Shown here: in pieces, positions 50 through 37,968 of the stretch | Layout of the letters: each line of letters opens with the position of its first letter | Numbering within the stretch: the first letter of the stretch is position 1 | UHGV virus genome: UHGV-0117250 | Reading direction: 5' to 3' (one strand) | Length of the DNA stretch: 38,690 nucleotides | DNA from: a virus | Position numbers and translations under genes: made by a program | The notes under the pieces: model-generated | Database searches by the model: none | What the model saw: only the letters and a program-made list of their open reading frames with translations | What the model was told of the DNA's origin: nothing

Positions 50-700
50 TCATGCTGCACGCTCCCGCCCCTGGTTGTCTGTTTGTGACAGCGGAGCATT
101 GCTGAATGCATTTGTTAATCCGCCAATATCCAACGCGTATCCAGGGTGTAGTTGCACTGCCGGGTCTTCGCACTGATTACCCCAAACATCGAAGCCATGA
201 GACGACTGGCGGGCGAACAGTTCAATGCGAGAAACATCGCCTAACAATTGCACAAATTTTTCACGAACGACATCTGGTTTTCTTGAATGCTCAAGCCGCG
301 GTGCGGTAAATGACTGAACGATACCTGCATTAATGCGCGGAGGTAGTTTTCCCTTTACCGCAAACAGGCAATCTTCACTATTGGCGCGAGTCATGTGTCC
401 CATACCCATAACCAGTTTATCTTGTTGTCGACTACCACATTTTATCCACGTGAAGCCCTTCATGGTCATCAGACGGAATCCCCAGGCTTCAACAACTTTT
501 AGTGCTTCGAGTGGTTGTGTTGGCACCCACCACATGGCCAACAGACAGTTTTCATCGGCCAAATCCCACACAGGAAGGCGGCAGATATCAAGCACACTCA
601 TAACCGGATATTTAAAACCGGCACCGCGATTACCATCTGCGGCTTTGTCCCGGTATACCCAGGGTGGATCTGCATAGATTAGTGTGTATTTCTTAGTCAT
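50..700 (-). CDS. DNA N6-adenine methyltransferase, Dam-like (MT-A70 family)
   Basis: ORF 50..712(-); N-terminal LIYADPPW contains the DPPW motif typical of MT-A70/phage Dam methyltransferases. The track start at 712 is GTG; the first ATG is at 700. Confidence 0.75.
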   Translation of the reverse strand: MTKKYTLIYADPPWVYRDKAADGNRGAGFKYPVMSVLDICRLPVWDLADENCLLAMWWVPTQPLEALKVVEAWGFRLMTMKGFTWIKCGSRQQDKLVMGMGHMTRANSEDCLFAVKGKLPPRINAGIVQSFTAPRLEHSRKPDVVREKFVQLLGDVSRIELFARQSSHGFDVWGNQCEDPAVQLHPGYALDIGGLTNAFSNAPLSQTDNQGRERAA

Positions 701-992
701 AAACCACCCCACAACATCCTATGCCGCTATAGTCGCCACGGCGAAGGCCGTTACCTTTTGTGATACATTGGTCCCTGCGAACCGCAATCCTTGCTCGCTC
801 AACATCACCAGAAGCAACATCCATACACTGAAGCCAAAGGTGAGCGGCAATGCGGAACTGCCCTTTTTTTTCTCTTTCAATCGCGCGTTTTTCGATCTCT
901 ATCGCCGCAGGAGTAACGGCGACAATCTTTGACGGACTACGCATTGAAACCTTATTCATGTGATATTTTTCAAGTCGGCTTAACTTTCTCAC
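693..992 (-). CDS. hypothetical protein (early-left operon)
   Basis: 99-codon ORF with GTG start at 992 preceded by GAGAGGG; co-oriented with neighbours and its stop overlaps the MTase start. No recognisable motif, and a plus-strand ORF overlaps it. Confidence 0.3.
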   Translation of the reverse strand: MRKLSRLEKYHMNKVSMRSPSKIVAVTPAAIEIEKRAIEREKKGQFRIAAHLWLQCMDVASGDVERARIAVRRDQCITKGNGLRRGDYSGIGCCGVVYD

Positions 993-3703: not shown

Positions 3704-4288
3704 TTATTGTTTGTTTTTTTCGTTCTGGTTGATGACAAATTCAATGTAACTTTCGATCTTTGCTTTCTCGGTTTCGGGTAACAAAGCGTAGCGCGAGCGG
3801 TCATAGTTGATAGTCGCAGGGTCGTGCGGGTGAATCAGTAATTCATAGCCGTGACGCCCGAATGCGGATGCAACATTCTCCAGGGTGGAAATGGAAACGC
3901 TGACCTCATTGTTTAACAGGCGGCTGATTGTCACCTGGGCGACGCCGGATGCGCGGTGAAGTTTTCCCTGCGTTGAAAGGTCGCGGCTTTCGCTCATCCA
4001 GCGTTCCAGGTTGTGAGCCGCCAGCTGACCAATGTCGCTTGGTCCGACAGGCTGAAAACCTTCCTGAGAAAGCGAGCGATCGATATCAAGCCAGTTACGG
4101 GGTTTATTGGCGGCAGCTTCAATTTTTCGCGCAACCTGGTCGCCGATAACCTTCTTGCCAAGAGCCCAGCGGTTTACCAGATTTGCCTGAGTTCCAAGTT
4201 TTTCTGCCATCCGCGTCTGAACACCATTGAATTCACGGTCGATCAAGTCGTTGAGATTTTGCCTGCGGACGTCCTGGATACTTTTCAT
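3704..4288 (-). CDS. prophage repressor, double-HTH (XRE-type), no peptidase S24 domain
   Basis: 194 aa; two HTH-like segments (around QTRMAEKLGTQANLVNRW and VAQVTISRLLNNEVSVSISTLENVA); divergent from a cro-like gene with dyad operators between them; no Ser/Lys autocleavage-type C-terminus visible. Confidence 0.7.
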   Translation of the reverse strand: MKSIQDVRRQNLNDLIDREFNGVQTRMAEKLGTQANLVNRWALGKKVIGDQVARKIEAAANKPRNWLDIDRSLSQEGFQPVGPSDIGQLAAHNLERWMSESRDLSTQGKLHRASGVAQVTISRLLNNEVSVSISTLENVASAFGRHGYELLIHPHDPATINYDRSRYALLPETEKAKIESYIEFVINQNEKNKQ

Positions 4289-6754: not shown

Positions 6755-7099
6755 ATGAGAAAACAGATACAGGCTCTTGGTCGACTCAAAACAGGCCAGA
6801 TGAACAAAACAGAATCTGCGTATTGCCAGCACCTTGAGCTGCGTAAACGTGCAGGGGAAATCGCCTGGTATCGATTCGAGGGTATCAAGCTGCGGTTAGC
6901 TGACAACACGTTCTATACGCCCGATTTTGCTGTGATGCTCGCCACCGGCGAGATGGAACTACACGAAGTGAAAGGTTTCTGGACCGACGACGCCAGGGTG
7001 AAAACCAAAGTCGCCGCAGATCAGTATCTGTTCCGAATCATCGGGGTAACGGTTAAACCAAAGAAAGCAGGTGGTGGGTGGAACATCGAAGAGTTCTGA
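6755..7099 (+). CDS. DUF1064-like phage protein (putative nuclease/resolvase-like)
   Basis: 114 aa; pattern ...KTESAYCQHLELRK...YRFEGIKLRL...YTPDF...HEVKG resembles DUF1064 phage proteins (from memory). Confidence 0.45.
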   Translation: MRKQIQALGRLKTGQMNKTESAYCQHLELRKRAGEIAWYRFEGIKLRLADNTFYTPDFAVMLATGEMELHEVKGFWTDDARVKTKVAADQYLFRIIGVTVKPKKAGGGWNIEEF

Positions 7100-7160: not shown

Positions 7161-7700
7161 ATGGAAAGTAATATCAAAGGGTTAGTTACCGCCGGGCATG
7201 AGATGGCTTCGGAACTGAAAGCAGAATGTGGCGCCGTTGATATGCGTAGTGTGGCAAAGCTGATCAGCGATTTGGCAACGCAACTGGAAGTGCAACTGGT
7301 GCGTGCTAATGCGCTGGCCGAAGACCAACAGAAAGCGATTGAGTCAATTAAGCAGGCTGATTCGGCTGTTAAGTTGGCGCACGAGAAGTTTTCAGCACTG
7401 GCAGCGGAGAGTGCGGGGATGAAGAAGTTCTGCAAAGACGCTGCATTCGATGCCGATTACGAAGCAGAGCTAGGTATGGAGCGTGGTGGATTCAGTGATG
7501 CGCTTAACGAAATCAAAACCCCAGCCACCGATGCTTTTCTGGCTGAAGTACGGGCGCAGGGGGTGGATATGGCTCGTAACGCGATGATTGATTTTGTTGA
7601 TGGTGAAATTGGGCCAAACAAGAACGTTCCGGGGCTGATTAGAGGCGCAGAGATATGCGTAAGTATTGCTGAACAGCTTCGCAAAGGAGGCAACCAGTGA
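7161..7700 (+). CDS. hypothetical protein
   Basis: 179 aa, ATG at 7161; no recognisable motif; stop overlaps the next gene start. Confidence 0.5.
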   Translation: MESNIKGLVTAGHEMASELKAECGAVDMRSVAKLISDLATQLEVQLVRANALAEDQQKAIESIKQADSAVKLAHEKFSALAAESAGMKKFCKDAAFDADYEAELGMERGGFSDALNEIKTPATDAFLAEVRAQGVDMARNAMIDFVDGEIGPNKNVPGLIRGAEICVSIAEQLRKGGNQ

Positions 7701-8191
7701 CTGGATATGCAGCAATCCTCGACATGTGCTGTGGCAGTCGCATGTTCTGGTTCGATAAGAAGGACGACCGGGCGATATTTAGCGATATCAGAAAGGAAGA
7801 GCACACATTATGTGATGGACGACGGCTGATAATTAGCCCTGACATGATAGCAGATTTTCGTGCATTACCATTTGCAGACGCATCGTTTCCGGTTGTTGTA
7901 TTCGACCCTCCGCATCTTGAGCGTGTTGGTGATAACGCCTGGATGGGAAAGAAATATGGACGGCTGAATAAAGATACCTGGCGTGATGATTTGCGGCAGG
8001 GATTTAAAGAAGCCTTTCGTGTGTTGCGGCCATACGGCGTTCTGATTTTTAAATGGAATGAAACGCAAATACCTGTTCGCCAGATATTGGCACTGACCGA
8101 CAGAAAGCCTGTTATCGGTCAACGAACAGGAAAGGGTGACAAGACCCACTGGATTATTTTTATGAAGGAGGCGACCAGTGAGCAAAATTAA
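7697..8191 (+). CDS. SAM-dependent DNA methyltransferase (DPPH motif)
   Basis: GTG start at 7697 with AGGAGG SD at 6-nt spacing; VVVFDPPH matches motif IV (D/N-P-P-Y/F/H) of N6A/N4C DNA methyltransferases; short (164 aa), so target recognition is unclear. Confidence 0.6.
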   Translation: MTGYAAILDMCCGSRMFWFDKKDDRAIFSDIRKEEHTLCDGRRLIISPDMIADFRALPFADASFPVVVFDPPHLERVGDNAWMGKKYGRLNKDTWRDDLRQGFKEAFRVLRPYGVLIFKWNETQIPVRQILALTDRKPVIGQRTGKGDKTHWIIFMKEATSEQN

Positions 8192-8624
8192 CTATCAGGC
8201 ACTGCGTGAAGCGGCAGAGCAGGCAATGCATGACGACTGGGGATTTGATGCGGACCTTTTCCATAAGCTGGTAACACCATCGATTGTGCTGGCACTGCTG
8301 GATGAACGGGAAAGAAACCAGCAATACATCAAATCACGCGACCAGGAGAACGAGGATATTGCGCTAACGGTAGGGAAGCTGCGTGTTGAGCTTGAAGCAG
8401 CAAAATCAAAACTCAACGAGCAGCGTGAATATTACGAGGGAGTAATCGCGGATGGAAGTAAGCGCATAGCAGAACTGGAGGAGCGGGAAATACTGCTCCC
8501 GGAACGTAGCAGCATGCTTCATCGAACAGATTTTCACGAGGATTACCAAACGGTAATGGCATACAAAGTTTCTGAAGTCATCGCTGCAATCCGCGCTGCT
8601 GGTATTCGCATCAAAGGAGAGTGA
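8178..8624 (+). CDS. ead/Ea22-like family protein
   Basis: GTG start with GAAGGAGG SD; N-terminal INYQALREAAEQA...PSIVLALLDERE followed by a coiled-coil region, as in ead/Ea22-like prophage proteins. Confidence 0.55.
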   Translation: MSKINYQALREAAEQAMHDDWGFDADLFHKLVTPSIVLALLDERERNQQYIKSRDQENEDIALTVGKLRVELEAAKSKLNEQREYYEGVIADGSKRIAELEEREILLPERSSMLHRTDFHEDYQTVMAYKVSEVIAAIRAAGIRIKGE

Positions 8625-8625
8625 G

Positions 8626-9222
8626 ATGAACGCTATAACCAAAGAACGTATCAAATTATTCATTAAAAATCCGCTTGATAACGGACTTACTCGTGGCGAA
8701 CAAATGGAACTGGCACGAATTGCACTGGCATCACTGGAACGCGAACAGATTCGCCACGAGCATGCCAAATGGTCTGACTCCACATTTGGCAGCGTTGGCC
8801 CCATTGGTCCGCTGAAACATCTCTCAAAAGAGGCACTGGAAGCCGCAGCCGAACCAGACGATCTTAGCGAGTGGGCTGATATGCAGTTTCTGTTGTGGGA
8901 TGCACAGCGCCGTGCTGGCATCAGCGATGCTGAAATTACCGCTGCTATGGAAGATAAATTGAAGATCAACATGGAGCGCCAGTGGCCTGAGCCAAAAGAT
9001 GGTGAGCCTCGCTTGCACATTAAAGAACCCGGCAACTCTCCGGTAATTCCGGATGGTTGGGTTATGGTGCCGAAGGAGTTAACCCCGGAAATGATGAGAG
9101 CCGTTCAGATTAGAAGTGAGCTTGGATGGTATGCCACTTCCAATCTATCTGGTGCATACAATATGTTTTCTGAGTTCTGGAATGTTGCTGTCTCAGCTGC
9201 GCCTAAGGTGGATGATTTATGA
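8626..9222 (+). CDS. DUF550-like protein (putative nucleotide pyrophosphohydrolase-like)
   Basis: 198 aa; N-terminal MNAITKERIKLFIKNP... resembles DUF550 prophage proteins (from memory). Confidence 0.4.
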   Translation: MNAITKERIKLFIKNPLDNGLTRGEQMELARIALASLEREQIRHEHAKWSDSTFGSVGPIGPLKHLSKEALEAAAEPDDLSEWADMQFLLWDAQRRAGISDAEITAAMEDKLKINMERQWPEPKDGEPRLHIKEPGNSPVIPDGWVMVPKELTPEMMRAVQIRSELGWYATSNLSGAYNMFSEFWNVAVSAAPKVDDL

Positions 9223-9521
9223 ATCTATATCGCTGCCCATTCTGTGGTTCCACTGTGCTTAACATCGGATACTCATTCAGTATCAGAGGGAAAATGCGCT
9301 ATGTGTCATGCAAATGTGGTGCCCAAGGACCAGAAAAACGAACTAAATCTGAAGCGATTTCTTCATGGAATAGTCGAATGAAAGTATGGGTTTATGATCC
9401 AGAAACCATATTAAACGCTGAAGAGCGCAGGAGAACGGAAGTCTATATTCATAACCTTAATGAAGATGGATTTACACCAGTGCTTGTAAAGGCTACTCCG
9501 CAGGAGGTTAACCGTGGCTAA
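9219..9521 (+). CDS. Lar-family restriction alleviation protein
   Basis: 100 aa; N-terminal CPFCG motif plus a downstream CKC pair, characteristic of Lar/RalR-type restriction-alleviation proteins; ATGA-coupled to the upstream gene. Confidence 0.6.
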   Translation: MNLYRCPFCGSTVLNIGYSFSIRGKMRYVSCKCGAQGPEKRTKSEAISSWNSRMKVWVYDPETILNAEERRRTEVYIHNLNEDGFTPVLVKATPQEVNRG

Positions 9522-9795
9522 CCTGCAACTAGCCGTTAAAGGTGAATACTTCGATGCCATAATTCGTGGAGAGAAAACGGAAGAGTATCGCCTGTGCAAT
9601 GACTACTGGAATAAACGCCTCGTTAATCGTAAGTATGACCGCCTGATTATCACAAAGGGATATCCGAAGCGCGACGATTCCAGCCGCAGAATTGACGTCC
9701 CGTATGACGGATATGAAATCAAGACAATCACACATCCGCACTTTGGCGATAAACCGGTAAAGGTGTACGCGATAAAGGTAAATATTGATGGCTAA
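9514..9795 (+). CDS. ASCH domain protein
   Basis: GTG start with GGAGG SD; LAVKGEYFDAIIRGEKTEEYR matches the ASCH (PUA-like) N-terminal signature. Confidence 0.55.
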   Translation: MANLQLAVKGEYFDAIIRGEKTEEYRLCNDYWNKRLVNRKYDRLIITKGYPKRDDSSRRIDVPYDGYEIKTITHPHFGDKPVKVYAIKVNIDG

Positions 9796-10126
9796 ATCAG
9801 CAGCAGAGCGCAAAGCCGCTCAGAGAGCCAGACAAGCTGCATCTGGTGTGCGTAAGCTGGAAATTGTGCTTGATGCTCAGGAAATTGAAATGCTTGATCG
9901 TAACTGTGCCGCGCGTCGCCCCGGGCGTGCGCCTTACGAATTTTGTGAGTATATAGCGTTACTGATCCGCCAGGATGATGCACGCGTGCGCGGGCGTATA
10001 AAATCGATTAGCAGAAAACGTTGCGGTAAGTGCGGCGAGAAAGTTCCCGTTAATTCATGCCCGTGTAATGGTGACTCGCAATGCTGGGTGACTAAAGGCT
10101 GGCATGAAACTAAATTAATAGTGTGA
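9788..10126 (+). CDS. hypothetical Cys-rich protein
   Basis: ATG at 9788 (track start 9785 is TTG); C-terminal CGKCGEK...CPCNGDSQC; last gene before the terminase operon; its stop lies inside a 12-bp palindrome. Confidence 0.45.
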   Translation: MAKSAAERKAAQRARQAASGVRKLEIVLDAQEIEMLDRNCAARRPGRAPYEFCEYIALLIRQDDARVRGRIKSISRKRCGKCGEKVPVNSCPCNGDSQCWVTKGWHETKLIV

Positions 10127-10841: not shown

Positions 10842-12313
10842 CAGATACAGCGTTATCTCCTGAAGAGCAGTTGATCGAGGATATTGCAGGGTTCACTCAC
10901 GATCCGCTTGGCTATGCCCTCTATGCGTTCCCGTGGGGGGAAGAGGGGACTGAACTGGCACATGCCACCGGCCCACGTCAGTGGCAGGCTGATGCGTTCC
11001 GAGAGATACGTGATCACCTGCAGAATCCAGAGACGCGCTATCAGCCGCTTATGCTGGCACGCGCTTCTGGTCACGGTATTGGTAAATCCGCATTCATCTC
11101 AATGCTGATCAACTGGGGCATGTCCACTTGCGAGGATTGTAAGGTCGTGGTGACCGCCAACACCGACAACCAGCTACGAACGAAGACCTGGCCGGAAATT
11201 ATCAAGTGGTCGAACCTTGCTATCACGAAAGACTGGTTTACCTGTACCGCTACCGCGATGTACAGCAATGATCCTGGGCACGACAAGCGGTGGCGGGCTG
11301 ACGCAATCCCCTGGTCTGAGCACAACACTGAGGCATTCGCCGGACTACACAACGAGCGCAAACGCATCATCGTGGTATTCGATGAAGCGTCGAACATTGC
11401 GGATCTGGTGTGGGAAGTTGCCGAAGGTGCGCTAACGGACGAAGACACTGAGATTATCTGGGTGGCGTTCGGAAACCCGACGCGTAACACCGGGCGTTTC
11501 CGCGAATGTTTCCGCAAATATAAACACCGCTGGAAAACTGCGCAGATTGACAGCCGGACGGTGGAAGGCACTAACAAACAGCAGTTGCAGAAATGGGTTG
11601 ATGACTACGGGGAAGACAGCGACTTCGTTAAAATCCGTGTGCGCGGCATATTCCCGGATGCATCTGAATTGCAGTTTATCCCTACCGGACTTACTGACGA
11701 GGCAATGAAACGGGTGGTCACCGCTGCGCAGGTTGCACATGCTCCGGTGATAATCGGCGTTGACCCGGCATACTCAGGCGTTGATGACGCTGTGATATAC
11801 CTGCGGCAGGGGCTGCACAGTAAGGTGCTGTGGACTGGCAACAAGACCACTGACGATCTGATTATGGCGAAGCGTATCGCTGACTTTGAAGACCAGTACC
11901 AGGCTGACGCAGTGTTCATCGACTTCGGTTACGGAACTGGTCTGAAGTCAATCGGTGACGGCTGGGGTCGTACATGGCAACTTGTTCCGTTCGGTGGCGC
12001 GTCTACTGACCCGCAGATGCTCAACAAGCGTGGGGAGATGTTCAACTCATGTAAGACATGGCTGAGGCTGGGCGGCATGCTGGATGACCAGGAAACTGCA
12101 GACGACCTGTCGGCGGCAGAGTACAAAGTTCGAGTGGACGGTAAAATCGTTATCGAACCGAAGGAAGATATCAAAGAGCGACTTGGGCGTTCGCCGGGTA
12201 AAGGCGATGCGCTGCTGCTGACGTTTGCTTTCCCGGTGTCGAAGCGCCTGCGACTTCCCGGGCAGCAGAACCAGCAAGGCAAGGCGCTTACCGAGTACGA
12301 TCCATATGCTTAG
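10838..12313 (+). CDS. terminase large subunit
   Basis: 491 aa; Walker-A-like ASGHGIGKS; acidic nuclease-type C-terminal region; position and size typical. Confidence 0.8.
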   Translation: MTDTALSPEEQLIEDIAGFTHDPLGYALYAFPWGEEGTELAHATGPRQWQADAFREIRDHLQNPETRYQPLMLARASGHGIGKSAFISMLINWGMSTCEDCKVVVTANTDNQLRTKTWPEIIKWSNLAITKDWFTCTATAMYSNDPGHDKRWRADAIPWSEHNTEAFAGLHNERKRIIVVFDEASNIADLVWEVAEGALTDEDTEIIWVAFGNPTRNTGRFRECFRKYKHRWKTAQIDSRTVEGTNKQQLQKWVDDYGEDSDFVKIRVRGIFPDASELQFIPTGLTDEAMKRVVTAAQVAHAPVIIGVDPAYSGVDDAVIYLRQGLHSKVLWTGNKTTDDLIMAKRIADFEDQYQADAVFIDFGYGTGLKSIGDGWGRTWQLVPFGGASTDPQMLNKRGEMFNSCKTWLRLGGMLDDQETADDLSAAEYKVRVDGKIVIEPKEDIKERLGRSPGKGDALLLTFAFPVSKRLRLPGQQNQQGKALTEYDPYA

Positions 12314-13128
12314 TCTTTATTTTTATCCTCGAAACCTGATAATCCAGATAGAACACCAAAGTTATTAAAAACGTCTGGCTTACCAGATTTTAATCCGGAT
12401 AAGTTGTGTTGCTCCAAAAAGTTGCTAATTGTTTGGCCGTTGCCAAGTGCAAGACTTTTTATTTGAGATTTTTCAGGGTATTTGAGTTTGTATTCGTCGA
12501 AATCATTTTGGAGGGTCTTATATGCCTCATTCATTCTTCCAAGAGTTTCCGATATCTCTTTTAATGAATGATTTAGAGCTGCTAACTGAGCACTGGCGGA
12601 TCTCAATTCGTCATCTTTAGCTTTCAACTCAGCAGTCAATTCCCCCATACTATTCTTTGATCGAATAATCTCTTCTTTCATCTCTTGGATGTCTTTTTCC
12701 GCGCCAGTCTTAACTTTGTCGTATGTAACATCTTTTTTAGCCAATAACCTCTGCAGTCTGGTTTCACGCTGGATTTTTCTTGCCTTCAGGTGATTTTCGA
12801 TTGAGTCATTATTATCAAGAGGCTTTGCTTGCCATACGTTAATGATATTGTTTACCCATGGTAATAGGCAGCAGATAGCAATTACAGATAAGCATGGATA
12901 AAACATAACAGTTTTCCATGTGCTGTTATCTGAGATATATGAAATTTTATCTATTATGTTTGATTTGCTAAAAAATAGATAAAGAATTGATTTCCAGTTG
13001 AAGGCGCACCAGGACATAACAAAAGCACCAAGCACAGGGTTTTTGGCTCGATTCACGGCAGTATTGGCAGTAGATAAAAACAGCTCTTTAAACGATTCAA
13101 ACATGCTAATTACCTTGAAGTTTTTCAT
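12310..13128 (-). CDS. moron: membrane-anchored coiled-coil protein (candidate superinfection-exclusion/abortive-infection factor)
   Basis: Antisense to the structural operon, markedly AT-rich; two hydrophobic segments (PVLGAFVMSWCAFNW; VMFYPCLSVIAICCLLPW) then a long coiled-coil-like C-terminal half; stop codon overlaps the terminase stop. ATG 13128 preferred; an alternative ATG at 13104 has an AAGGT SD. Confidence 0.55.
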   Translation of the reverse strand: MKNFKVISMFESFKELFLSTANTAVNRAKNPVLGAFVMSWCAFNWKSILYLFFSKSNIIDKISYISDNSTWKTVMFYPCLSVIAICCLLPWVNNIINVWQAKPLDNNDSIENHLKARKIQRETRLQRLLAKKDVTYDKVKTGAEKDIQEMKEEIIRSKNSMGELTAELKAKDDELRSASAQLAALNHSLKEISETLGRMNEAYKTLQNDFDEYKLKYPEKSQIKSLALGNGQTISNFLEQHNLSGLKSGKPDVFNNFGVLSGLSGFEDKNKD

Positions 13129-13131
13129 GAT

Positions 13132-13148
13132 TATACCTTTAAGGTAAT
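13132..13148. promoter_or_regulatory. dyad-motif site overlapping moron translation start
   Basis: TATACC-TTTAA-GGTAAT located 4 nt upstream of the moron ATG on the coding strand. Confidence 0.35.
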
Positions 13149-13163
13149 TTGCGGTCATCAAGC

Positions 13164-13188
13164 AAAAAAATGCCCGGCGAACCGGGCG
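13164..13188 (-). terminator. intrinsic terminator-like hairpin (minus strand)
   Basis: GCCCGG-CGAA-CCGGGC followed by a 7-T run on the minus strand, between the tRNA and the moron; a second hairpin with a T-run lies at 13266..13309. Confidence 0.45.
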
Positions 13189-13350
13189 AACTGGAAGCAA
13201 TGAGTTATGCCTTCCGTGGCTGTACGTGTTTACAGCATGAAGTCATCGCAATGGCGTCCTGCTGTAAAAAGGGCGGTGATAGTCCTTCAAGGGAAACCAT
13301 CACCGCCAAGCACCTGGAACTTCTGGCATCACGGTCCTTAGGCGTGATTC

Positions 13351-13427
13351 TGGCGTGGCATGCAGGATTCGAACCTGCGACCAACCGCTTAGAAGGCGGT
13401 TGCTCTGTCCAACTGAGCTAATGCCAC
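13351..13427 (-). tRNA. tRNA-Arg (anticodon UCU)
   Basis: Minus-strand 77-nt cloverleaf: 7-bp acceptor stem GTGGCAT/ATGCCAC, D-arm GCTC..GAGC, anticodon stem ACCGC/GCGGT with loop CTTCTAA (anticodon TCT), T-arm GCAGG-TTCGAAT-CCTGC, encoded CCA end. Confidence 0.85.
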
Positions 13428-19561: not shown

Positions 19562-22032
19562 TGGCTATCAGTTGGATCCAGCCCAGCTTTGCCGGTGGTG
19601 AGATTGGACCGTCGTTGTACGGTCGTATCGACATGGCGAAGTACCAGGTGGCATTGCGCAAGTGCGATAACTTTATCGTGCGGCAGTATGGCGGCGTTGA
19701 GAATCGACCTGGTACGCGTTTTGTCGGTGCCGCCAAATACCCAAATCGGAAATGCCGCCTGATCCCGTTCCAGTTCTCGACGGTTCAGACTTATGCTCTG
19801 GAGTTCGGACACCAGTACATGCGCGTTATCAAAGATGGTGCGTTGGTGCTGAATAGCAGCAATGTTATTTATGAAATTGCCACGCCATATACTGAAGCCG
19901 ATCTGTTCCGAATTAAATTCACGCAAAGCGCAGACGTGCTTACGCTGGTTCATCCGGCATACCCGCCGAAAGAGTTGCGCCGCTATGCGCATGACAACTG
20001 GCAACTGGTTGATGTGGTAACGAAGAACGGGCCATTTGAAGATATCAATATTGACGAGTCAGTGACGGTTTATGCCAGCGCCAGCACCGGGACAATTACG
20101 TTAACGGCAAGCGCCTCAATTTTTGGCGCGGAGCAGGTAGGCAAATTGTTCTATCTGGAACAGCCTGCAGTGGATTCTGTGCCGGTATGGGAAACCAGTA
20201 AGAGTACGTCGATTGGCGATATTCGCCGTGCAGACAGTAACTACTATCGCGCCGTTACAGCAGGCAAAACAGGCACTTTGCGCCCTTCGCATACAGAAGG
20301 CACATCATGGGATGGCTGGGGCGGATCCGGTGATGATGATACCGGCATTGAGTGGGAGTATCTGCACAGTGGTTTTGGCATTGCCCGTATCTCTGCTGCA
20401 AATGGAACTACTGCAACTGCCGAGGTGATTTCCTATATCCCTTCGCAGGTAGTTGGCGAGGATAATGCCAGCTATAAATGGGCTAAATATGCCTGGAACA
20501 GTGTTAATGGTTATCCTGGCACTGTTGTTTATTATCAACAACGTCTTTACTTCGCCGCATCGACTGCGTTCCCTCAGACTATCTGGGCCAGCCGTACCGT
20601 GGATTATAAGGATTTTGGCAAAAGCAATCCTACGCAGGATGACGACAGAATTATCTACACCTATGCCGGGCGTCAGGTTAATGAGATCCGCCACCTGATT
20701 GATGTCGGTTCGCTGGTGGCACTGACTTCCGGAGGTGAGTACGTCATCACCGGCGACCAGAACAAAGTGTTAACCCCATCATCATTTGCATTCAGCTCTC
20801 AGGGATCAAATGGCTCGAGCAATGTCCCACCAATTGCCGTGGCGAATATTGCTCTGTTCGTCCAGGAGAAAGGCAGTGTTGTCCGTGATCTGGCCTACTC
20901 ATTCGATGTTGACGGCTATCAGGGGAACGACCTGACCATCCTTGCCAATCATCTTTTTCAGAAGCACAGCATTGTTGACTGGTGCTTCTCTATTGTCCCT
21001 TACTCCAGCGCCTTCTGCATTCGTGATGACGGTAAATTACTGGTGATGACCTATTTGCGTGATCAGCAGGTTTTTGCATGGGCACCACAATCCAGTACCG
21101 GAAAATATGAAAGCACATGCAGTATCAGCGAAGGAAATGAAGATGCGGTGTATTTCGTCATTAACCGAACCGTTAACGGGCAAACAGTGAGATACATCGA
21201 GCGACTGTCCAGCCGTTTATTTACCAGCGATGAAGATGCTTTCTTTGTTGATTCTGGCCTTAGCTATGATGGAAGAAATACGTCTGACAGAACGATGACC
21301 ATCACTGGTGGTTCTGGCGAATGGGATTACCGCGCGGAATATACAATCAGTGTTTCTGGTGGTGCGTACTTCACCAGTAGTGATGTCGGTGCGCAACTAC
21401 AGTTCCCTTATACCGGAACTGATCCTGATACTGGCGATGAAGTGTCAAAAGAATTACGTTGCGACATTATTTCTGTAACCAGCAATACCGCAGTAGTGGT
21501 TCGTGCTAACAGGAACGTCCCGCCATCCCTCAGGAATGTGGCCACCACGAACTGGCAGATGGCGCGCCGGACATTTGGAGGCCTGTCTCATCTTGAAGGC
21601 CAGACCGTAAACATTCTCTCTGATGCGAACGTGGAACCACAGAAAGTTGTTTCCGGAGGTGCCGTCACGCTGGAATCTCCGGGGGCTGTAGTGCACATCG
21701 GCCTGCCAATAACTGCTGAATTCGAAACACTGGATATCAACATTAACGGACAGGAAACGCTGCTGGACAAAAAACAGGTGATCCCGTCCGTTACTCTGGT
21801 TGTGAATGCCAGTCGCGGCATCTGGGCGACTACGCCAGGCGGTAAATGGTACGAATATCCACAGCGTGAATTCGAGTTCTATGATGATCCTGTTGATGAC
21901 GCTACCGGAAAAGTAGAAGTGAAACTGGACAGTAACTGGGGCAAAAACGGACGTGTAAAAATCCGTCAGCTTGACCCGTTGCCGCTGTCTGTTCTTGCCG
22001 TTATTCCTCGCCTTACTGTTGGGGGATTCTGA
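19561..22032 (+). CDS. tail tubular protein B-like (T7 gp12-like)
   Basis: 823 aa, size and position as for podovirus gp12; start overlaps the preceding stop. Confidence 0.55.
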   Translation: MAISWIQPSFAGGEIGPSLYGRIDMAKYQVALRKCDNFIVRQYGGVENRPGTRFVGAAKYPNRKCRLIPFQFSTVQTYALEFGHQYMRVIKDGALVLNSSNVIYEIATPYTEADLFRIKFTQSADVLTLVHPAYPPKELRRYAHDNWQLVDVVTKNGPFEDINIDESVTVYASASTGTITLTASASIFGAEQVGKLFYLEQPAVDSVPVWETSKSTSIGDIRRADSNYYRAVTAGKTGTLRPSHTEGTSWDGWGGSGDDDTGIEWEYLHSGFGIARISAANGTTATAEVISYIPSQVVGEDNASYKWAKYAWNSVNGYPGTVVYYQQRLYFAASTAFPQTIWASRTVDYKDFGKSNPTQDDDRIIYTYAGRQVNEIRHLIDVGSLVALTSGGEYVITGDQNKVLTPSSFAFSSQGSNGSSNVPPIAVANIALFVQEKGSVVRDLAYSFDVDGYQGNDLTILANHLFQKHSIVDWCFSIVPYSSAFCIRDDGKLLVMTYLRDQQVFAWAPQSSTGKYESTCSISEGNEDAVYFVINRTVNGQTVRYIERLSSRLFTSDEDAFFVDSGLSYDGRNTSDRTMTITGGSGEWDYRAEYTISVSGGAYFTSSDVGAQLQFPYTGTDPDTGDEVSKELRCDIISVTSNTAVVVRANRNVPPSLRNVATTNWQMARRTFGGLSHLEGQTVNILSDANVEPQKVVSGGAVTLESPGAVVHIGLPITAEFETLDININGQETLLDKKQVIPSVTLVVNASRGIWATTPGGKWYEYPQREFEFYDDPVDDATGKVEVKLDSNWGKNGRVKIRQLDPLPLSVLAVIPRLTVGGF

Positions 22033-32870: not shown

Positions 32871-34730
32871 ATGGACTTCAGGAAGGATATCAATGGAGTC
32901 AGGGCTATAGCAGTTCTTGCTGTAGTCCTGTTCCACTTCAACAGAGGATGGGTCCCGAGTGGATTTGTTGGCGTAGATGTATTCTTTGTAATTTCTGGTT
33001 TTTTGATGACGTCAATAATATTTGGCGGATTAGAAGGAAATAAATTTTCTCTGTGGGGCTTTTATAAAGCACGAGCCAGAAGGATAGTGCCTGCGCTTGC
33101 CGTTATGCTAATTTGCGTAATGGTATACGGATGGTACAACATGTACACTCCTGAATTTAAGACATTGGCGAAGCACGCTGCGTCAAGCCTTCTATTTGTT
33201 TCAAATATCGTCTATTGGAAGGAGTCAAGCTACTTTGCTCCTGGTGCAGAAGAGAAGTGGTTACTTCATACTTGGTCTCTATCTGTAGAATGGCAATTCT
33301 ATATTATATATCCTTTAGCCATTTATATTATCAGAAAGGCTTTCAGTTTAAAGGTATCTAGGATATTAATTCTGATTGCAGGCCTATTAAGTTTAGCACT
33401 TAGCATTTATGCATCTAGGATTTTAGTTAGCTCATCATATTTCTTGCTTCCAACAAGGGCATGGGAGATGATTGCTGGCGGCGTGGTTTATCTTTTCCCG
33501 ACATCAATATTTAAACGAAAACCTTTCCCATATATCGGGATTGCTACCATATTAGTATCCTGCTTTATTTTTAGCGAGGAATCGTACTGGCCTAGCTACA
33601 ATGCGCTGCTGCCTATCATCGGCACGATGATCATATTGTGGTCGTGTTCTGATAACATTATCTTAGATTCATCTTTTGCGCAAAAGATTGGGTTGTATTC
33701 ATATTCAATTTATTTGTGGCACTGGCCGATCTATCTATATATATATAATACATATGGTGGTGTTTCTATATTAACAACGCTCATTGGAATTGTTGCGTCA
33801 GTGGCGATGGGTATGTTGTCATTTAAATATATAGAAAGTGTTTTCAAAAGTAGAGGCGGCGTTAAAAAGGAGTTTCTGTACTTTGCATCATTAGCTTTAG
33901 CTGTTGGTATATATATTTCTAATGGCGCTAACACTGATATGCGAAGTATCACAAAAACTACCGGTAATGAAACTGTGGTGCATTACGATGGATATCGGTT
34001 TGATAATAATGGGATGTGGGATAAATGTAACAGCAGTGAAAAACTGGATCATATCGATAAATCATGTGTCGATACTGATAAAAGGGGAGGTGTCTTCTTA
34101 TGGGGAGACTCTCACGCGGGAGCACTTTCTTTAGGGATAAGATCACTTCTAAAAGATGGCGTTCCATTCTATCAACTTGCTGCTTCAAGTTGTAAACCGA
34201 GTCTCCATAAATTCCCTGGAGTTATAAGTGCCACAATTGGATGTAATCTATCCAATGAAAAAGCCATTGAAGATATAAATATTGTTAAACCTGATGTTGT
34301 GGTATTAGCTCAGAGATTCCAGCATGAAGAAACAAACTGGCAAAGCATCGCTGAGAAAATACACTCACTGGGTGTTAAGAAAGTTATAGTCCTTGGTCCT
34401 GTTCCTCAGTGGAAAGGGAGCCTGCCGCTAATTGTTGCGAAAAACTACAATCCTAATGATATTTACATTGATGAACGATTTTTGGATAAACAGATTGTCG
34501 CGACAAATAACAAAATGAAGACGATATCAAAAGACAATGAAGGTTATGATTTTGTCGACATACTTGATCACTTATGCACACATGAAGGTTCAGAACTGAA
34601 GTGTAGGGCAAGGGTAGATAGTGGCTTTACGCTTATGTCTATGGATTACGGTCACCCTACTGATGAAGGGTCACTGTTCATCGGCAAACACATAATTAAA
34701 AGCCACCTCCCAACAAGCATAACCAAGTAA
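32871..34730 (+). CDS. O-antigen acetyltransferase (acyltransferase-3 membrane domain + SGNH domain)
   Basis: 619 aa; multi-TM N-terminal half typical of acyltransferase family 3 (OafA/Oac-like); C-terminal domain with GDSH-type motif (FLWGDSHAG); AT-rich; directly downstream of the tailspike. Confidence 0.75.
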   Translation: MDFRKDINGVRAIAVLAVVLFHFNRGWVPSGFVGVDVFFVISGFLMTSIIFGGLEGNKFSLWGFYKARARRIVPALAVMLICVMVYGWYNMYTPEFKTLAKHAASSLLFVSNIVYWKESSYFAPGAEEKWLLHTWSLSVEWQFYIIYPLAIYIIRKAFSLKVSRILILIAGLLSLALSIYASRILVSSSYFLLPTRAWEMIAGGVVYLFPTSIFKRKPFPYIGIATILVSCFIFSEESYWPSYNALLPIIGTMIILWSCSDNIILDSSFAQKIGLYSYSIYLWHWPIYLYIYNTYGGVSILTTLIGIVASVAMGMLSFKYIESVFKSRGGVKKEFLYFASLALAVGIYISNGANTDMRSITKTTGNETVVHYDGYRFDNNGMWDKCNSSEKLDHIDKSCVDTDKRGGVFLWGDSHAGALSLGIRSLLKDGVPFYQLAASSCKPSLHKFPGVISATIGCNLSNEKAIEDINIVKPDVVVLAQRFQHEETNWQSIAEKIHSLGVKKVIVLGPVPQWKGSLPLIVAKNYNPNDIYIDERFLDKQIVATNNKMKTISKDNEGYDFVDILDHLCTHEGSELKCRARVDSGFTLMSMDYGHPTDEGSLFIGKHIIKSHLPTSITK

Positions 34731-36894: not shown

Positions 36895-37434
36895 TTAATT
36901 AAACCAGCTGTCCGATTTGTTCTCTTCTGCTTTGCCCACGCTTTTCATCAGATCGCGACCGCCTTCAGTCATATTTCTGTTGGCGTCAGCTTCAGATTGC
37001 ACCACATCGGTTTGCGCAGCTTTGTGCTTCAGTTCCTGATCGATAAATTCGTTTTCTCGCTTAACGCGGGCTTCTTCTTTCGCCAGCGCCAGTTTTTGTT
37101 TCTGAATCTCTAAGCTGCGTAGCTCATCTTCATAACTTTGATCGCGTTTTTTGTCCGCAGAGGCTTCGGCGTCCAGTTTATCCTGACGAGCTTTCTTATT
37201 TGCTGCTGCCGTTGCCGCTCTTTTGTTAGCGGCGGCCTGGGCATTTGCGCGACGTTGCTTCTCTTGCTGGATTTCCCTGTTGCGCTCCGCGACCCATTCG
37301 TCATGCTGCCTTTGCTCTTCATTTTTACCTTGCTGTTCAGCTTCTGCTACAGCAGAGAGTTGATCCTGCAATGATGAGGCGATAGCCGGATAGCTTAAGG
37401 AGGCCAAGATGGCGCAAAGAAAAACTTTCTTCAT
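36895..37434 (-). CDS. yfgI: periplasmic coiled-coil protein, host gene (YfgI-like)
   Basis: 179 aa with a signal peptide (MKKVFLCAILASLSYPAIA); size, order and orientation match the E. coli yfgG-yfgH-yfgI cluster next to guaA (from memory). Confidence 0.45.
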   Translation of the reverse strand: MKKVFLCAILASLSYPAIASSLQDQLSAVAEAEQQGKNEEQRQHDEWVAERNREIQQEKQRRANAQAAANKRAATAAANKKARQDKLDAEASADKKRDQSYEDELRSLEIQKQKLALAKEEARVKRENEFIDQELKHKAAQTDVVQSEADANRNMTEGGRDLMKSVGKAEENKSDSWFN

Positions 37435-37449
37435 GACTCCTCCTGATTA

Positions 37450-37968
37450 TTAGCTCTTTTCAGGACATTTAGTATTTGGCTGAATACGCGTTTCGTTATA
37501 CGTTGTGGTAATAACAACGGCTAAACCTGTCGTAAACTGGCACTCTTTACCCACCTGGGTAGAGGTATACACTTTGGTGCCTTCCTTATATGTTAAAGAA
37601 ACACCTTCCACTAAGGTTTTATCATTCACCATAGAACCCGCTGCCGCGCCTACAGCTCCGCCGCCAACTGCCCCTGCCGTCGTTCCGGAATTGCTGCCAG
37701 AACCGACGTTGTGGCCGATAACACCGCCAGCGACTGCGCCAATAAGCGCGCCGAAGGCTTGTGCGTTCCGTTTATTTTGGGAGTTGTCTACGGCAACTTT
37801 TGCGGGAAGAATGGAAATAATATTAACGGTTTTAGTTTCTTGTTTGGTATTCAGTTGATCGGTTTGATAAACATCGGCGGCATGATCGTCAGCATTTGAC
37901 TGGCATCCTGCCAGAGTGAATGACGCTAACATTGCCACAGGCAGAAGACATTTTTTAAATTTCATCAC
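37450..37968 (-). CDS. yfgH: glycine-zipper lipoprotein, host gene (YfgH-like)
   Basis: 172 aa; lipobox LAGC; glycine-zipper segment GALIGAVAGGVIGHNVGSG (OsmB/YcfJ-like); ATG at 37965 (track start 37968 is GTG). Confidence 0.45.
   Translation of the reverse strand: MMKFKKCLLPVAMLASFTLAGCQSNADDHAADVYQTDQLNTKQETKTVNIISILPAKVAVDNSQNKRNAQAFGALIGAVAGGVIGHNVGSGSNSGTTAGAVGGGAVGAAAGSMVNDKTLVEGVSLTYKEGTKVYTSTQVGKECQFTTGLAVVITTTYNETRIQPNTKCPEKS

Follow-up and report, generated by a model that had tools for sequence, protein, structure and literature searches.

The closest described counterparts of the genes analyzed here are the Stx-phage MT-A70 enzymes M.EcoGV and M.EcoPA8orf6770P, the minimal phage methyltransferase PamA, and the Lar/RalR protein of the E. 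coli K-12 Rac prophage. For the MT-A70 group, the literature on GATC specificity conflicts: REBASE describes M.EcoGV, from an O104:H4 Stx2 phage, as a GATC Dam homolog, and overexpression data also indicate GATC, whereas M.EcoPA8orf6770P from phage PA8 does not, by itself, significantly methylate DNA or GATC sites in vitro, the purified enzyme being inactive on dam- DNA (PMC10810198). When combined with its co-transcribed partner PNB-2, the PA8 enzyme prefers 16S rRNA, favors RNA over DNA more than 13-fold, and raises prophage induction, with an effect on spontaneous induction, while its C-terminal tail is implicated in partner binding (PMC10810198). PamA, encoded by the S. aureus prophage mPhi11, is a 141-aa adenine methyltransferase that has no target-recognition domain (TRD) and makes DNA sensitive to DpnI. 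King and Murray reportedly found in 1995 that Rac Lar alleviates type IA restriction and enhances modification, and to our knowledge, these two effects have been shown for Rac Lar only. Current annotation makes K-12 ralR the gene of an endodeoxyribonuclease toxin, paired in a type I system with the RalA sRNA antitoxin (PMC4041452). Lambda Ral is treated in a review that covers anti-restriction strategies.

Genomic context of the three genes

The window, which is the whole 38,690-nucleotide stretch of UHGV virus genome UHGV-0117250, is an E. coli prophage, a temperate podovirus of the phiV10/epsilon15 type (Uetakevirus-like), an assignment that rests on gene order and comparison with relatives. 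The first-pass annotation had grouped three of its genes as a counter-defense set: one for an MT-A70 methyltransferase carrying DPPW (50..700, minus strand), one for a second methyltransferase, in which the motif is DPPH (7697..8191, plus strand), and one for a Lar-family protein (9219..9521, plus strand), with no endonuclease adjacent to either methyltransferase. We find all three genes to be present, with the family membership proposed for them and with intact catalytic motifs. The absence of a cognate endonuclease also holds, as searches of the accessory ORFs across the window with Pfam, PHROGs, NCBIfam, and PADLOC gave no restriction endonuclease, and the neighbors of the two methyltransferase genes encode Ead/Ea22, DUF550, ASCH, DUF1064, and PerC-like proteins. 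Because no restriction endonuclease model matched in the scanned ORFs, both the MT-A70 enzyme and the 164-aa DPPH enzyme are orphan methyltransferases.

The reading that we favor, with a probability of about 0.5, is that these are independent accessory or semi-core prophage genes, found in separate operons or mosaic modules, and not one system; the substrates and phenotypes that we infer for them are a partner-dependent target for the MT-A70 enzyme, phage DNA for the DPPH enzyme, and promotion of modification for the Lar-like protein. The three genes are ordinary mosaic accessory content that has already been catalogued. If this reading is true, very little changes, the genes being common and already in RefSeq annotation.

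The DUF1064 gene (6755..7099) was considered as a cognate nuclease and rejected; it is a replication-module gene that matches phrog_190, a Holliday junction resolvase, and it is also present in the phiV10 annotation, which for this match lists no methyltransferase. PHROG labels reading "DNA methyltransferase" are unreliable, as illustrated by phrog_1277, which bears this label yet matches a TraT-like lipoprotein in the window.

The MT-A70 methyltransferase and its upstream ORF

The product of 50..700 is a 216-aa protein that begins MTKKYTLIYADPPW. It matches PF05063 along the full-length profile (1-172) with a score of 79.8 bits against a cut-off of 23.9 (E=2.9e-22), as well as phrog_359 and the PADLOC model MTase_II (E=1e-76), and its DPPW motif occurs as YADPPWVY at residues 9-16, counted from the ATG-700 start. 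The gene is the penultimate one in the early-left operon, at the integrase end, and both epsilon15 and Tyrion have an MT-A70 gene in the equivalent position, next to int. With 82% identity to M.EcoPA8orf6770P over residues 1-187, the enzyme is an ortholog of M.EcoGV and M.EcoPA8orf6770P, sharing with them the DPPW active site, a place close to the integrase where the early-left operon ends, and a small upstream ORF that overlaps the start codon.

The difference from PA8 lies in this upstream ORF and in the C-terminus. In PA8, the slot is held by the gene for the 143-aa winged-helix protein PNB-2, whereas here it is occupied by an 83-aa PerC/ANR-like ORF (693..944, minus strand), which ends 8 nt inside the MT-A70 gene. 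This ORF matches PF06069 (PerC, E=6e-7), phrog_868 (transcriptional activator), and, below the cut-off, NF033650 (ANR, E=3.4e-5); it has no similarity to PNB-2, the partner subunit of the M.EcoPA8orf6770P-type holoenzyme. The C-terminal 29 aa (approximately) of the window enzyme are likewise unrelated to the tail of M.EcoPA8orf6770P.

The catalytic core suggests that the enzyme methylates adenine at N6, and its target, either GATC DNA or 16S rRNA, may be set by the small upstream partner, which is here a different, PerC-like protein. Because the target would be partner-dependent and the partner is different, we consider a role in prophage induction or physiology to be at least as likely as one in anti-restriction. 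If the enzyme were GATC-specific, it would duplicate host Dam and therefore add no new motif. More broadly, anti-restriction DNA methylation is not to be assumed for prophage "Dam-like" MT-A70 genes, because the best-studied ortholog depends on a partner, acts as an rRNA methyltransferase, and increases prophage induction.

The PA8 findings also bear on a wider alternative, in which one or both methyltransferases of this prophage act on RNA (rRNA or tRNA) and so tune translation, prophage induction, or takeover of the host. The MT-A70 enzyme would then work with a small partner, and the DPPH enzyme would be an m2G/m6A-type RNA methyltransferase. We think this alternative improbable. The RNA preference of the M.EcoPA8orf6770P-PNB-2 pair and its influence on spontaneous induction argue for it, but PNB-2 is absent here, the partner-binding tail differs, and the modified base was not identified in the PA8 study (PMC10810198). 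The evidence from the DPPH enzyme on this question is taken up below.

A minimal DPPH methyltransferase

The plus-strand gene at 7697..8191 encodes a minimal class I SAM-dependent amino-methyltransferase of 164 aa, in which motif I is LDMCCG and motif IV is DPPH, contained in the stretch VVVFDPPHL. The match to phrog_954 is strong (E=5.5e-88), and REBASE-derived PADLOC models for MTase_II (E=1.6e-74) and orphan MTase (oMTase, E=1.4e-50) also match; Pfam gives only marginal matches to generic SAM-methyltransferases (Methyltransf_11, 21.9 vs. 21.2 bits), and none of the curated DNA-methyltransferase models of Pfam or NCBIfam reaches threshold. The SAM-binding motifs I-III and the motif IV of a DNA amino-methyltransferase are all present. 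Across a diverse alignment of 57 family members, LDMCCG, D9, D30, P48, D70-P71-P72-H73, E105, R108, and K119-W120 are invariant, and D49 is nearly so. An AF2 model built from this alignment (pLDDT 93.6) predicts a pared-down Rossmann core with no added domain, whereas a shallow input of 37 sequences at ≥72% identity gave a pLDDT of 53 and was discarded. All 164 residues fall inside the single Rossmann core of the model, with no TRD, and the core of the family is ~155 aa.

In these respects, the enzyme can be likened to PamA, by description and not by alignment: both are minimal orphans of ~150 aa with motif IV near residue 65-70 and no separate TRD. The two differ in that PamA has an NPPY motif and demonstrated GATC-type activity, whereas the window enzyme has the invariant DPPH and a predicted activity. 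Literature searches found nothing on a DPPH-motif phage methyltransferase, and sequence and profile searches of the PDB gave no informative relative for this enzyme or for the Lar-like protein.

The DPPH family comprises about 2,000 clusters at 50% identity. Haloarchaeal viruses have members, as do phages that infect Actinobacteria, Firmicutes, Bacteroidota, Akkermansia, and Proteobacteria, and identities across this range are 35-64%. Minimal DPPH methyltransferases are thus a very widespread phage family, among the most widely distributed of phage methyltransferases. Listeria phage A118 gp50 and Gordonia phage Bosnia gp65 are 52% and 64% identical, respectively, to the 164-aa enzyme over ~95% of its length; their genes likewise sit in replication/recombination modules, although the hosts and phyla are different. 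In Bosnia, the gene immediately follows that of another DNA methylase. The records for these two proteins carry the labels "methylates cytosine residues," as a putative function, and "methyltransferase." Of 80 viral loci with a DPPH gene, six have an MT-A70 homolog no more than 6 kb away, and in L031, it is immediately downstream.

The DPPH gene belongs to a tightly packed early-right operon, where it is found between the replication genes and the terminase, so it would be made only in lytic growth. DNA is a plausible substrate: the most likely acceptors are exocyclic amino groups, at adenine N6 or cytosine N4, in phage DNA undergoing replication, and with little or short sequence specificity, the enzyme could provide progeny with broad protection from restriction. 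As for the RNA alternative, the closest solved folds and profile matches of the enzyme are generic or RNA m2G enzymes no less than DNA methyltransferases, and the best of those bearing the motif are Trm11, TrmN, RsmC, Trm14, and the RsmD-like HI0767, TrmN itself carrying NPPH. The breadth of the family at 35-64% identity would also fit a universally conserved substrate, but DNA is a universal substrate too. In addition, sub-threshold matches among the 57 scanned family members are weakly in favor of DNA, being more often to N6_N4_Mtase (22/57) than to the RNA-type families UPF0020 (4/57) and RsmD (3/57), and DPPH genes cluster with DNA methylases and replication genes. A broader departure from ordinary sequence-specific DNA methylation, whether as essentially non-specific DNA methylation or as methylation of a conserved RNA, is a tentative possibility that we hold to be less likely than not. 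An RNA substrate, if true, would parallel the recent reassignment of a prophage MT-A70 "Dam" to 16S rRNA. Knowing the substrate of the DPPH family would be a modest advance, though one of use to many. Despite the breadth of the family, the "DNA methyltransferase" label of the minimal DPPH enzyme in phage databases is putative.

Two candidate associations of the family were examined. An ASCH domain is fused to the DPPH methyltransferase in one member (P0148), and both this prophage and Gordonia phage Bosnia have ASCH genes nearby, but tblastn found an ASCH homolog at none of the 80 DPPH loci, such that this linkage is only a weak hint. Lar as a Trm112-like partner of the DPPH enzyme, or as a fusion to it, was rejected as unsupported. 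The 80 loci contain no Lar ORF, and although the N-terminus of one family member, P0129, bears a CPMCG zinc ribbon, this gives only E=0.09 against TIGR03655 and does not match a Lar HMM built for the purpose.

The Lar-like gene

The 100-aa product of 9219..9521 is a Lar-family zinc-ribbon protein that scores above the cut-offs of PF14354 (Lar_restr_allev, 36.1 vs. 28.6 bits) and TIGR03655 (59.5 vs. 39.6 bits). The Lar domain spans residues 1-55 and includes a complete four-Cys zinc ribbon (C6, C9, C31, C33), which is followed by a 45-aa C-terminal extension. The protein is 98% identical to Shigella phage Sf6 gp20 (the gene 20 equivalent), whereas identity to K-12 Rac Lar/RalR is 34% over 53 aa only. 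All three share the CPFCG...C.C...EA..WN.R zinc-ribbon signature, but the C-terminal extension sets the window protein apart from Rac Lar/RalR, and the location of its gene in the early-right region, before the terminase, differs from that of Rac lar and Sf6 gene 20, which are in the leftward recombination/ea region. The protein is an Sf6 gp20-type Lar variant, and one role it may have is to help type IA (EcoKI-like) enzymes modify DNA de novo, as Rac Lar is said to do.

The low identity to RalR and the extra 45 aa are also consistent with a different role, in which the protein takes no part in alleviation and is instead a DNase or toxin like RalR, or a zinc ribbon with an unrelated function. 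The toxin annotation of K-12 ralR (PMC4041452) and the naming of most close RalR-type family members as toxins point the same way, whereas members of the subgroup of 98-100 aa go by "Lar family restriction alleviation protein," a name that is annotation only. However, Rfam detects no RalA-like RNA in the window, and the sole antisense complementarity, compared with the about 16 nt of a RalA-type pairing, is a 14-nt stretch inside a virion structural gene, which is probably a chance match. With the gene also embedded in a lytic operon of overlapping stops and starts, we judge a non-alleviation role to be quite unlikely.

Linkage and surroundings of the three genes

A coordinated anti-restriction toolkit, in which phage DNA receives its methylation beforehand from two orphan DNA methyltransferases and Lar strengthens the host's type I modification, is what the conventional RefSeq and PHROG labels of all three families would imply. 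PADLOC/REBASE-type models match both methyltransferases, and reviews list orphan phage methyltransferases and Ral-type alleviation among anti-restriction strategies. The arrangement of the genes argues otherwise. The genes lie in opposite early operons, ~7 kb apart, or in separate mosaic modules; the nearest prophage relative has no Lar gene; none of the 80 related loci carrying a DPPH methyltransferase has a Lar ORF; and the block from the methyltransferase to Lar is intact in no complete E. coli genome. Moreover, a GATC-specific enzyme gains nothing in a dam+ host, and the MT-A70 ortholog prefers rRNA (PMC10810198). A joint toolkit is therefore unlikely in our view. Of the counter-defense set first proposed, the family assignments and orphan status stand, but its unity as two DNA methyltransferases and an alleviator is not established, given a PA8 ortholog without DNA methylation, a DPPH enzyme without a TRD, a Lar protein so distant from RalR, and genes that are unlinked.

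From 7161 to 10126, the early-right genes are joined by overlapping stops and starts, with no promoter- or terminator-like sites between them; one weak terminator-like match (8017-8037) is intragenic. This stretch opens with a plus-strand gene (7161..7700) for a modular 179-aa protein with an Ea22-like C-terminus, which matches phrog_492, phrog_614, and phrog_368, all of unknown function, and nothing in Pfam, NCBIfam, or PADLOC; its stop overlaps the start of the 164-aa methyltransferase gene. On the other side, the stop of the Lar-like gene is overlapped by a plus-strand gene for a 93-aa ASCH-domain protein (9514..9795), identified by phrog_625 (E=1.9e-50), a sub-threshold PF04266 match (19.3 vs. 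21.2 bits), and the RefSeq annotation in a relative. The 7697..9521 span given in the first-pass annotation holds two further plus-strand genes. One is a mosaic spacer gene encoding an Ead/Ea22-like protein (8178..8624; PF13935, E=2e-31), and the other encodes a protein with a DUF550/dATP-dGTP pyrophosphohydrolase domain (8626..9222; PF04447, 144 bits). The stop of the DUF550 gene overlaps the Lar-like start, and it accompanies the Lar-like gene in several E. coli genomes.

Gene organization and linkage

By gene order, the window is a temperate podovirus. Its first 25 kb are 97-98% identical to prophages in many E. coli genomes, and its structural and early genes match those of phiV10, TL-2011b, epsilon15-type phages and their kin. 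In the closest relative, from E. coli strain 2824, the element lies downstream of guaA, with the integrase immediately left of the point corresponding to the window start. A minus-strand early-left operon carries exonuclease, RecT, AlpA-like, PerC-like and MT-A70 genes, followed by the repressor (3704..4288) and a plus-strand early-right operon with a replication initiator, a P-like loader, DUF1064, several small accessory genes in a block and the terminase; the virion genes come after it. Between terminase and portal, a low-GC patch holds a 296-aa gene of unknown function (12310..13200, minus strand; phrog_4780), which adjoins a tRNA gene (13354..13427, minus strand) and whose product has weak coiled-coil-type matches to DndD, PbeC and LmuB. 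Further right, 32871..34730 (plus strand) encodes a fusion of an AT3 acyltransferase and an SGNH domain. As phiV10 and Sf6 do with their enzymes, the prophage probably uses it to acetylate the O-antigen and convert the serotype. Near the right end, the reverse strand encodes a TraT/glycine-zipper lipoprotein (37450..37968) and a DUF5384 protein (36895..37434), likely lysogenic-conversion or exclusion genes.

The first-pass annotation described a counter-defence set of two orphan DNA methyltransferases and a Lar-type restriction-alleviation gene. This observation is confirmed in that the three ORFs, encoding MT-A70 (50..700, minus strand), a small DPPH-motif methyltransferase (7697..8191, plus strand) and Lar (9219..9521, plus strand), are present as described, and the term orphan is correct because our scan of the remaining accessory ORFs (Pfam, PHROGs, NCBIfam, PADLOC) yielded no restriction endonuclease. 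The counter-defence interpretation is partly supported: the families and orphan status hold, while the single linked set does not and the anti-restriction role of MT-A70 is its least secure element. Instead, the three are already annotated prophage genes that assort independently.

The MT-A70 gene lies in the opposite operon, 7 kb from the other two, which are themselves separated within a mosaic block by two unrelated genes that had gone unmentioned, Ead/Ea22 and a DUF550 dATP/dGTP pyrophosphohydrolase. The 98%-identical relative carries the methyltransferase but has a DUF551 gene where the window has the DUF550 and Lar genes. Among 5,426 complete E. coli genomes searched, none carries 80% or more of the 7697..9521 block at a single location; more often, the Lar gene travels with DUF550 and Ea22. 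Likewise, no Lar ORF occurs within 6 kb of the small methyltransferase in the 80 viral contigs that carry it (tblastn or Lar HMM), and 6/80 have an MT-A70 homolog within that distance. The DUF550 protein (8626..9222, plus strand) has a MazZ-like domain and its gene often adjoins the Lar gene in E. coli genomes; we saw no PurZ-type gene in the window.

The MT-A70 enzyme

The 50..700 product, which begins MTKKYTLIYADPPW, matches the full length of the Pfam MT-A70 profile (79.8 bits). Over residues 1-187, it is 82% identical to M.EcoPA8orf6770P of Stx phage PA8, and it shares ~77-80% identity with its positional counterparts in epsilon15 and Enterobacter phage Tyrion. According to Gong, Chakraborty and Koudelka (PMC10810198), the PA8 enzyme raises spontaneous induction and virulence in a manner requiring its DPPW motif. 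Alone on dam- DNA, its SAM-utilisation activity is near background. It binds PNB-2, which is encoded by the overlapping gene upstream, in a 1:1 complex that prefers RNA over DNA by >13-fold and favours 16S rRNA; their study did not identify which base is modified. In contrast, the highly similar M.EcoGV is a GATC Dam homolog in REBASE-based annotation.

In the window, the upstream ORF (693..944, minus strand; 83 aa) overlaps the MT-A70 start by 8 nt and is translationally coupled to it, but its product is PerC/ANR-like and unrelated to PNB-2. Tyrion has a 75-aa winged-helix gene at this position where PA8 has its rRNA-targeting partner, and the small ORF upstream of these MT-A70 genes looks like a module that can be exchanged. 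Also different is the C-terminal tail, the region that Gong et al. tied to partner binding. Given the PA8 biochemistry, the different upstream ORF and the different tail, nothing in the finding is less secure than the label of a Dam-like orphan DNA methyltransferase serving anti-restriction. If the enzyme were specific for GATC, it would duplicate host Dam and yield no new motif.

The Lar-like protein

Both Lar models match the 9219..9521 product above their curated thresholds. Its residues 1-55 hold the zinc-ribbon signature CPFCG...C.C...EA..WN.R and are 34% identical to K-12 RalR, whereas the 45 aa that extend its C-terminus match nothing. Sf6 gene 20, located after an Ead/Ea22 gene in that phage's leftward ea region, encodes a 98%-identical protein. 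The Lar family comprises a group of 61-80 aa, now named 'type I toxin-antitoxin system endodeoxyribonuclease toxin RalR', and one of 98-100 aa, named 'Lar family restriction alleviation protein'. Annotation of the K-12 gene describes a DNase toxin paired with RalA, an sRNA antitoxin, and we found no RalA-like RNA in the window. Restriction alleviation would thus be a function borrowed from a distant founder that is itself of disputed role. A 14-nt perfect reverse-complement match between the Lar coding region (9240..9253) and a virion gene (21631..21644) is probably coincidental (~0.05 expected by chance).

The minimal DPPH methyltransferase

For the minimal DPPH family, our literature search found no determination of the substrate. 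The 164-aa product of 7697..8191 contains LDMCCG and FDPPH motifs, has only marginal, generic SAM-methyltransferase matches in Pfam, and matches phrog_954 strongly as well as REBASE-derived PADLOC models of type II and orphan methyltransferases. A word-indexed search returned 7,822 homologs, every one named just 'class I SAM-dependent methyltransferase', and an exhaustive search gave 2,061 clusters at 50% identity. The 255 phage-collection records with this gene have very distant hosts: homologs occur in phages of Streptococcus, Staphylococcus, Enterococcus, Listeria (phage A118 gp50, 52% identity), Gordonia (64%), Corynebacterium, Porphyromonas, Bacteroides, Akkermansia, Vibrio and Acinetobacter, and in haloarchaeal tailed viruses (35-39%). 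The family core is ~155 aa, longer members being fusions with variable neighbours. The structure predicted from a shallow alignment was poor; with a diverse alignment, the prediction was confident (pLDDT 93.6) and shows a stripped-down Rossmann core without an additional domain. The alignment retains D9, D30, D49 (nearly invariant) and D70-P-P-H73, the residues that would be expected for SAM binding and amino-group transfer.

Fold and profile comparisons do not single out one substrate. Among motif-bearing enzymes, the fold ranking places the RNA m2G methyltransferases Trm11, TrmN, RsmC and Trm14 first, with M.TaqI and HemK lower, and a profile search against PDB sequences returned PH0226, Trm11 and an RsmD-like protein alone, each weakly. 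The NPPH motif of T. thermophilus TrmN provides an RNA precedent for histidine at the fourth position. On the DNA side, 22/57 family members have sub-threshold N6_N4 DNA-methylase matches, compared with just 3-4 for RNA m2G families; the gene is housed in replication or recombination modules, directly follows another DNA methylase in Gordonia phage Bosnia, and has an MT-A70 homolog nearby (within 6 kb) at 6/80 viral loci; and PamA, a 141-aa phage DNA adenine methyltransferase, works without a recognition domain. These points lead us to favour, with moderate confidence, a lytic-cycle DNA amino-methyltransferase of little specificity. By themselves, database labels carry little weight: PHROG also applies 'DNA methyltransferase' to phrog_1277, the TraT-like lipoprotein family present in the window.

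We predict that the genes of 7161..10126 are co-transcribed in lytic growth, because their stops and starts overlap and no promoter- or terminator-like site was seen between them; one weak terminator-like match (8017-8037) is intragenic. Such co-transcription would fit modification of progeny DNA by the methyltransferase but does not prove it. An ASCH-domain gene (9514..9795, plus strand) directly follows the Lar gene. No general linkage of ASCH to the small methyltransferase was found (0/80 loci, tblastn); an ASCH gene lies near it in phage Bosnia (L005, 291..644), and one family member (P0148) carries an N-terminal ASCH fusion.
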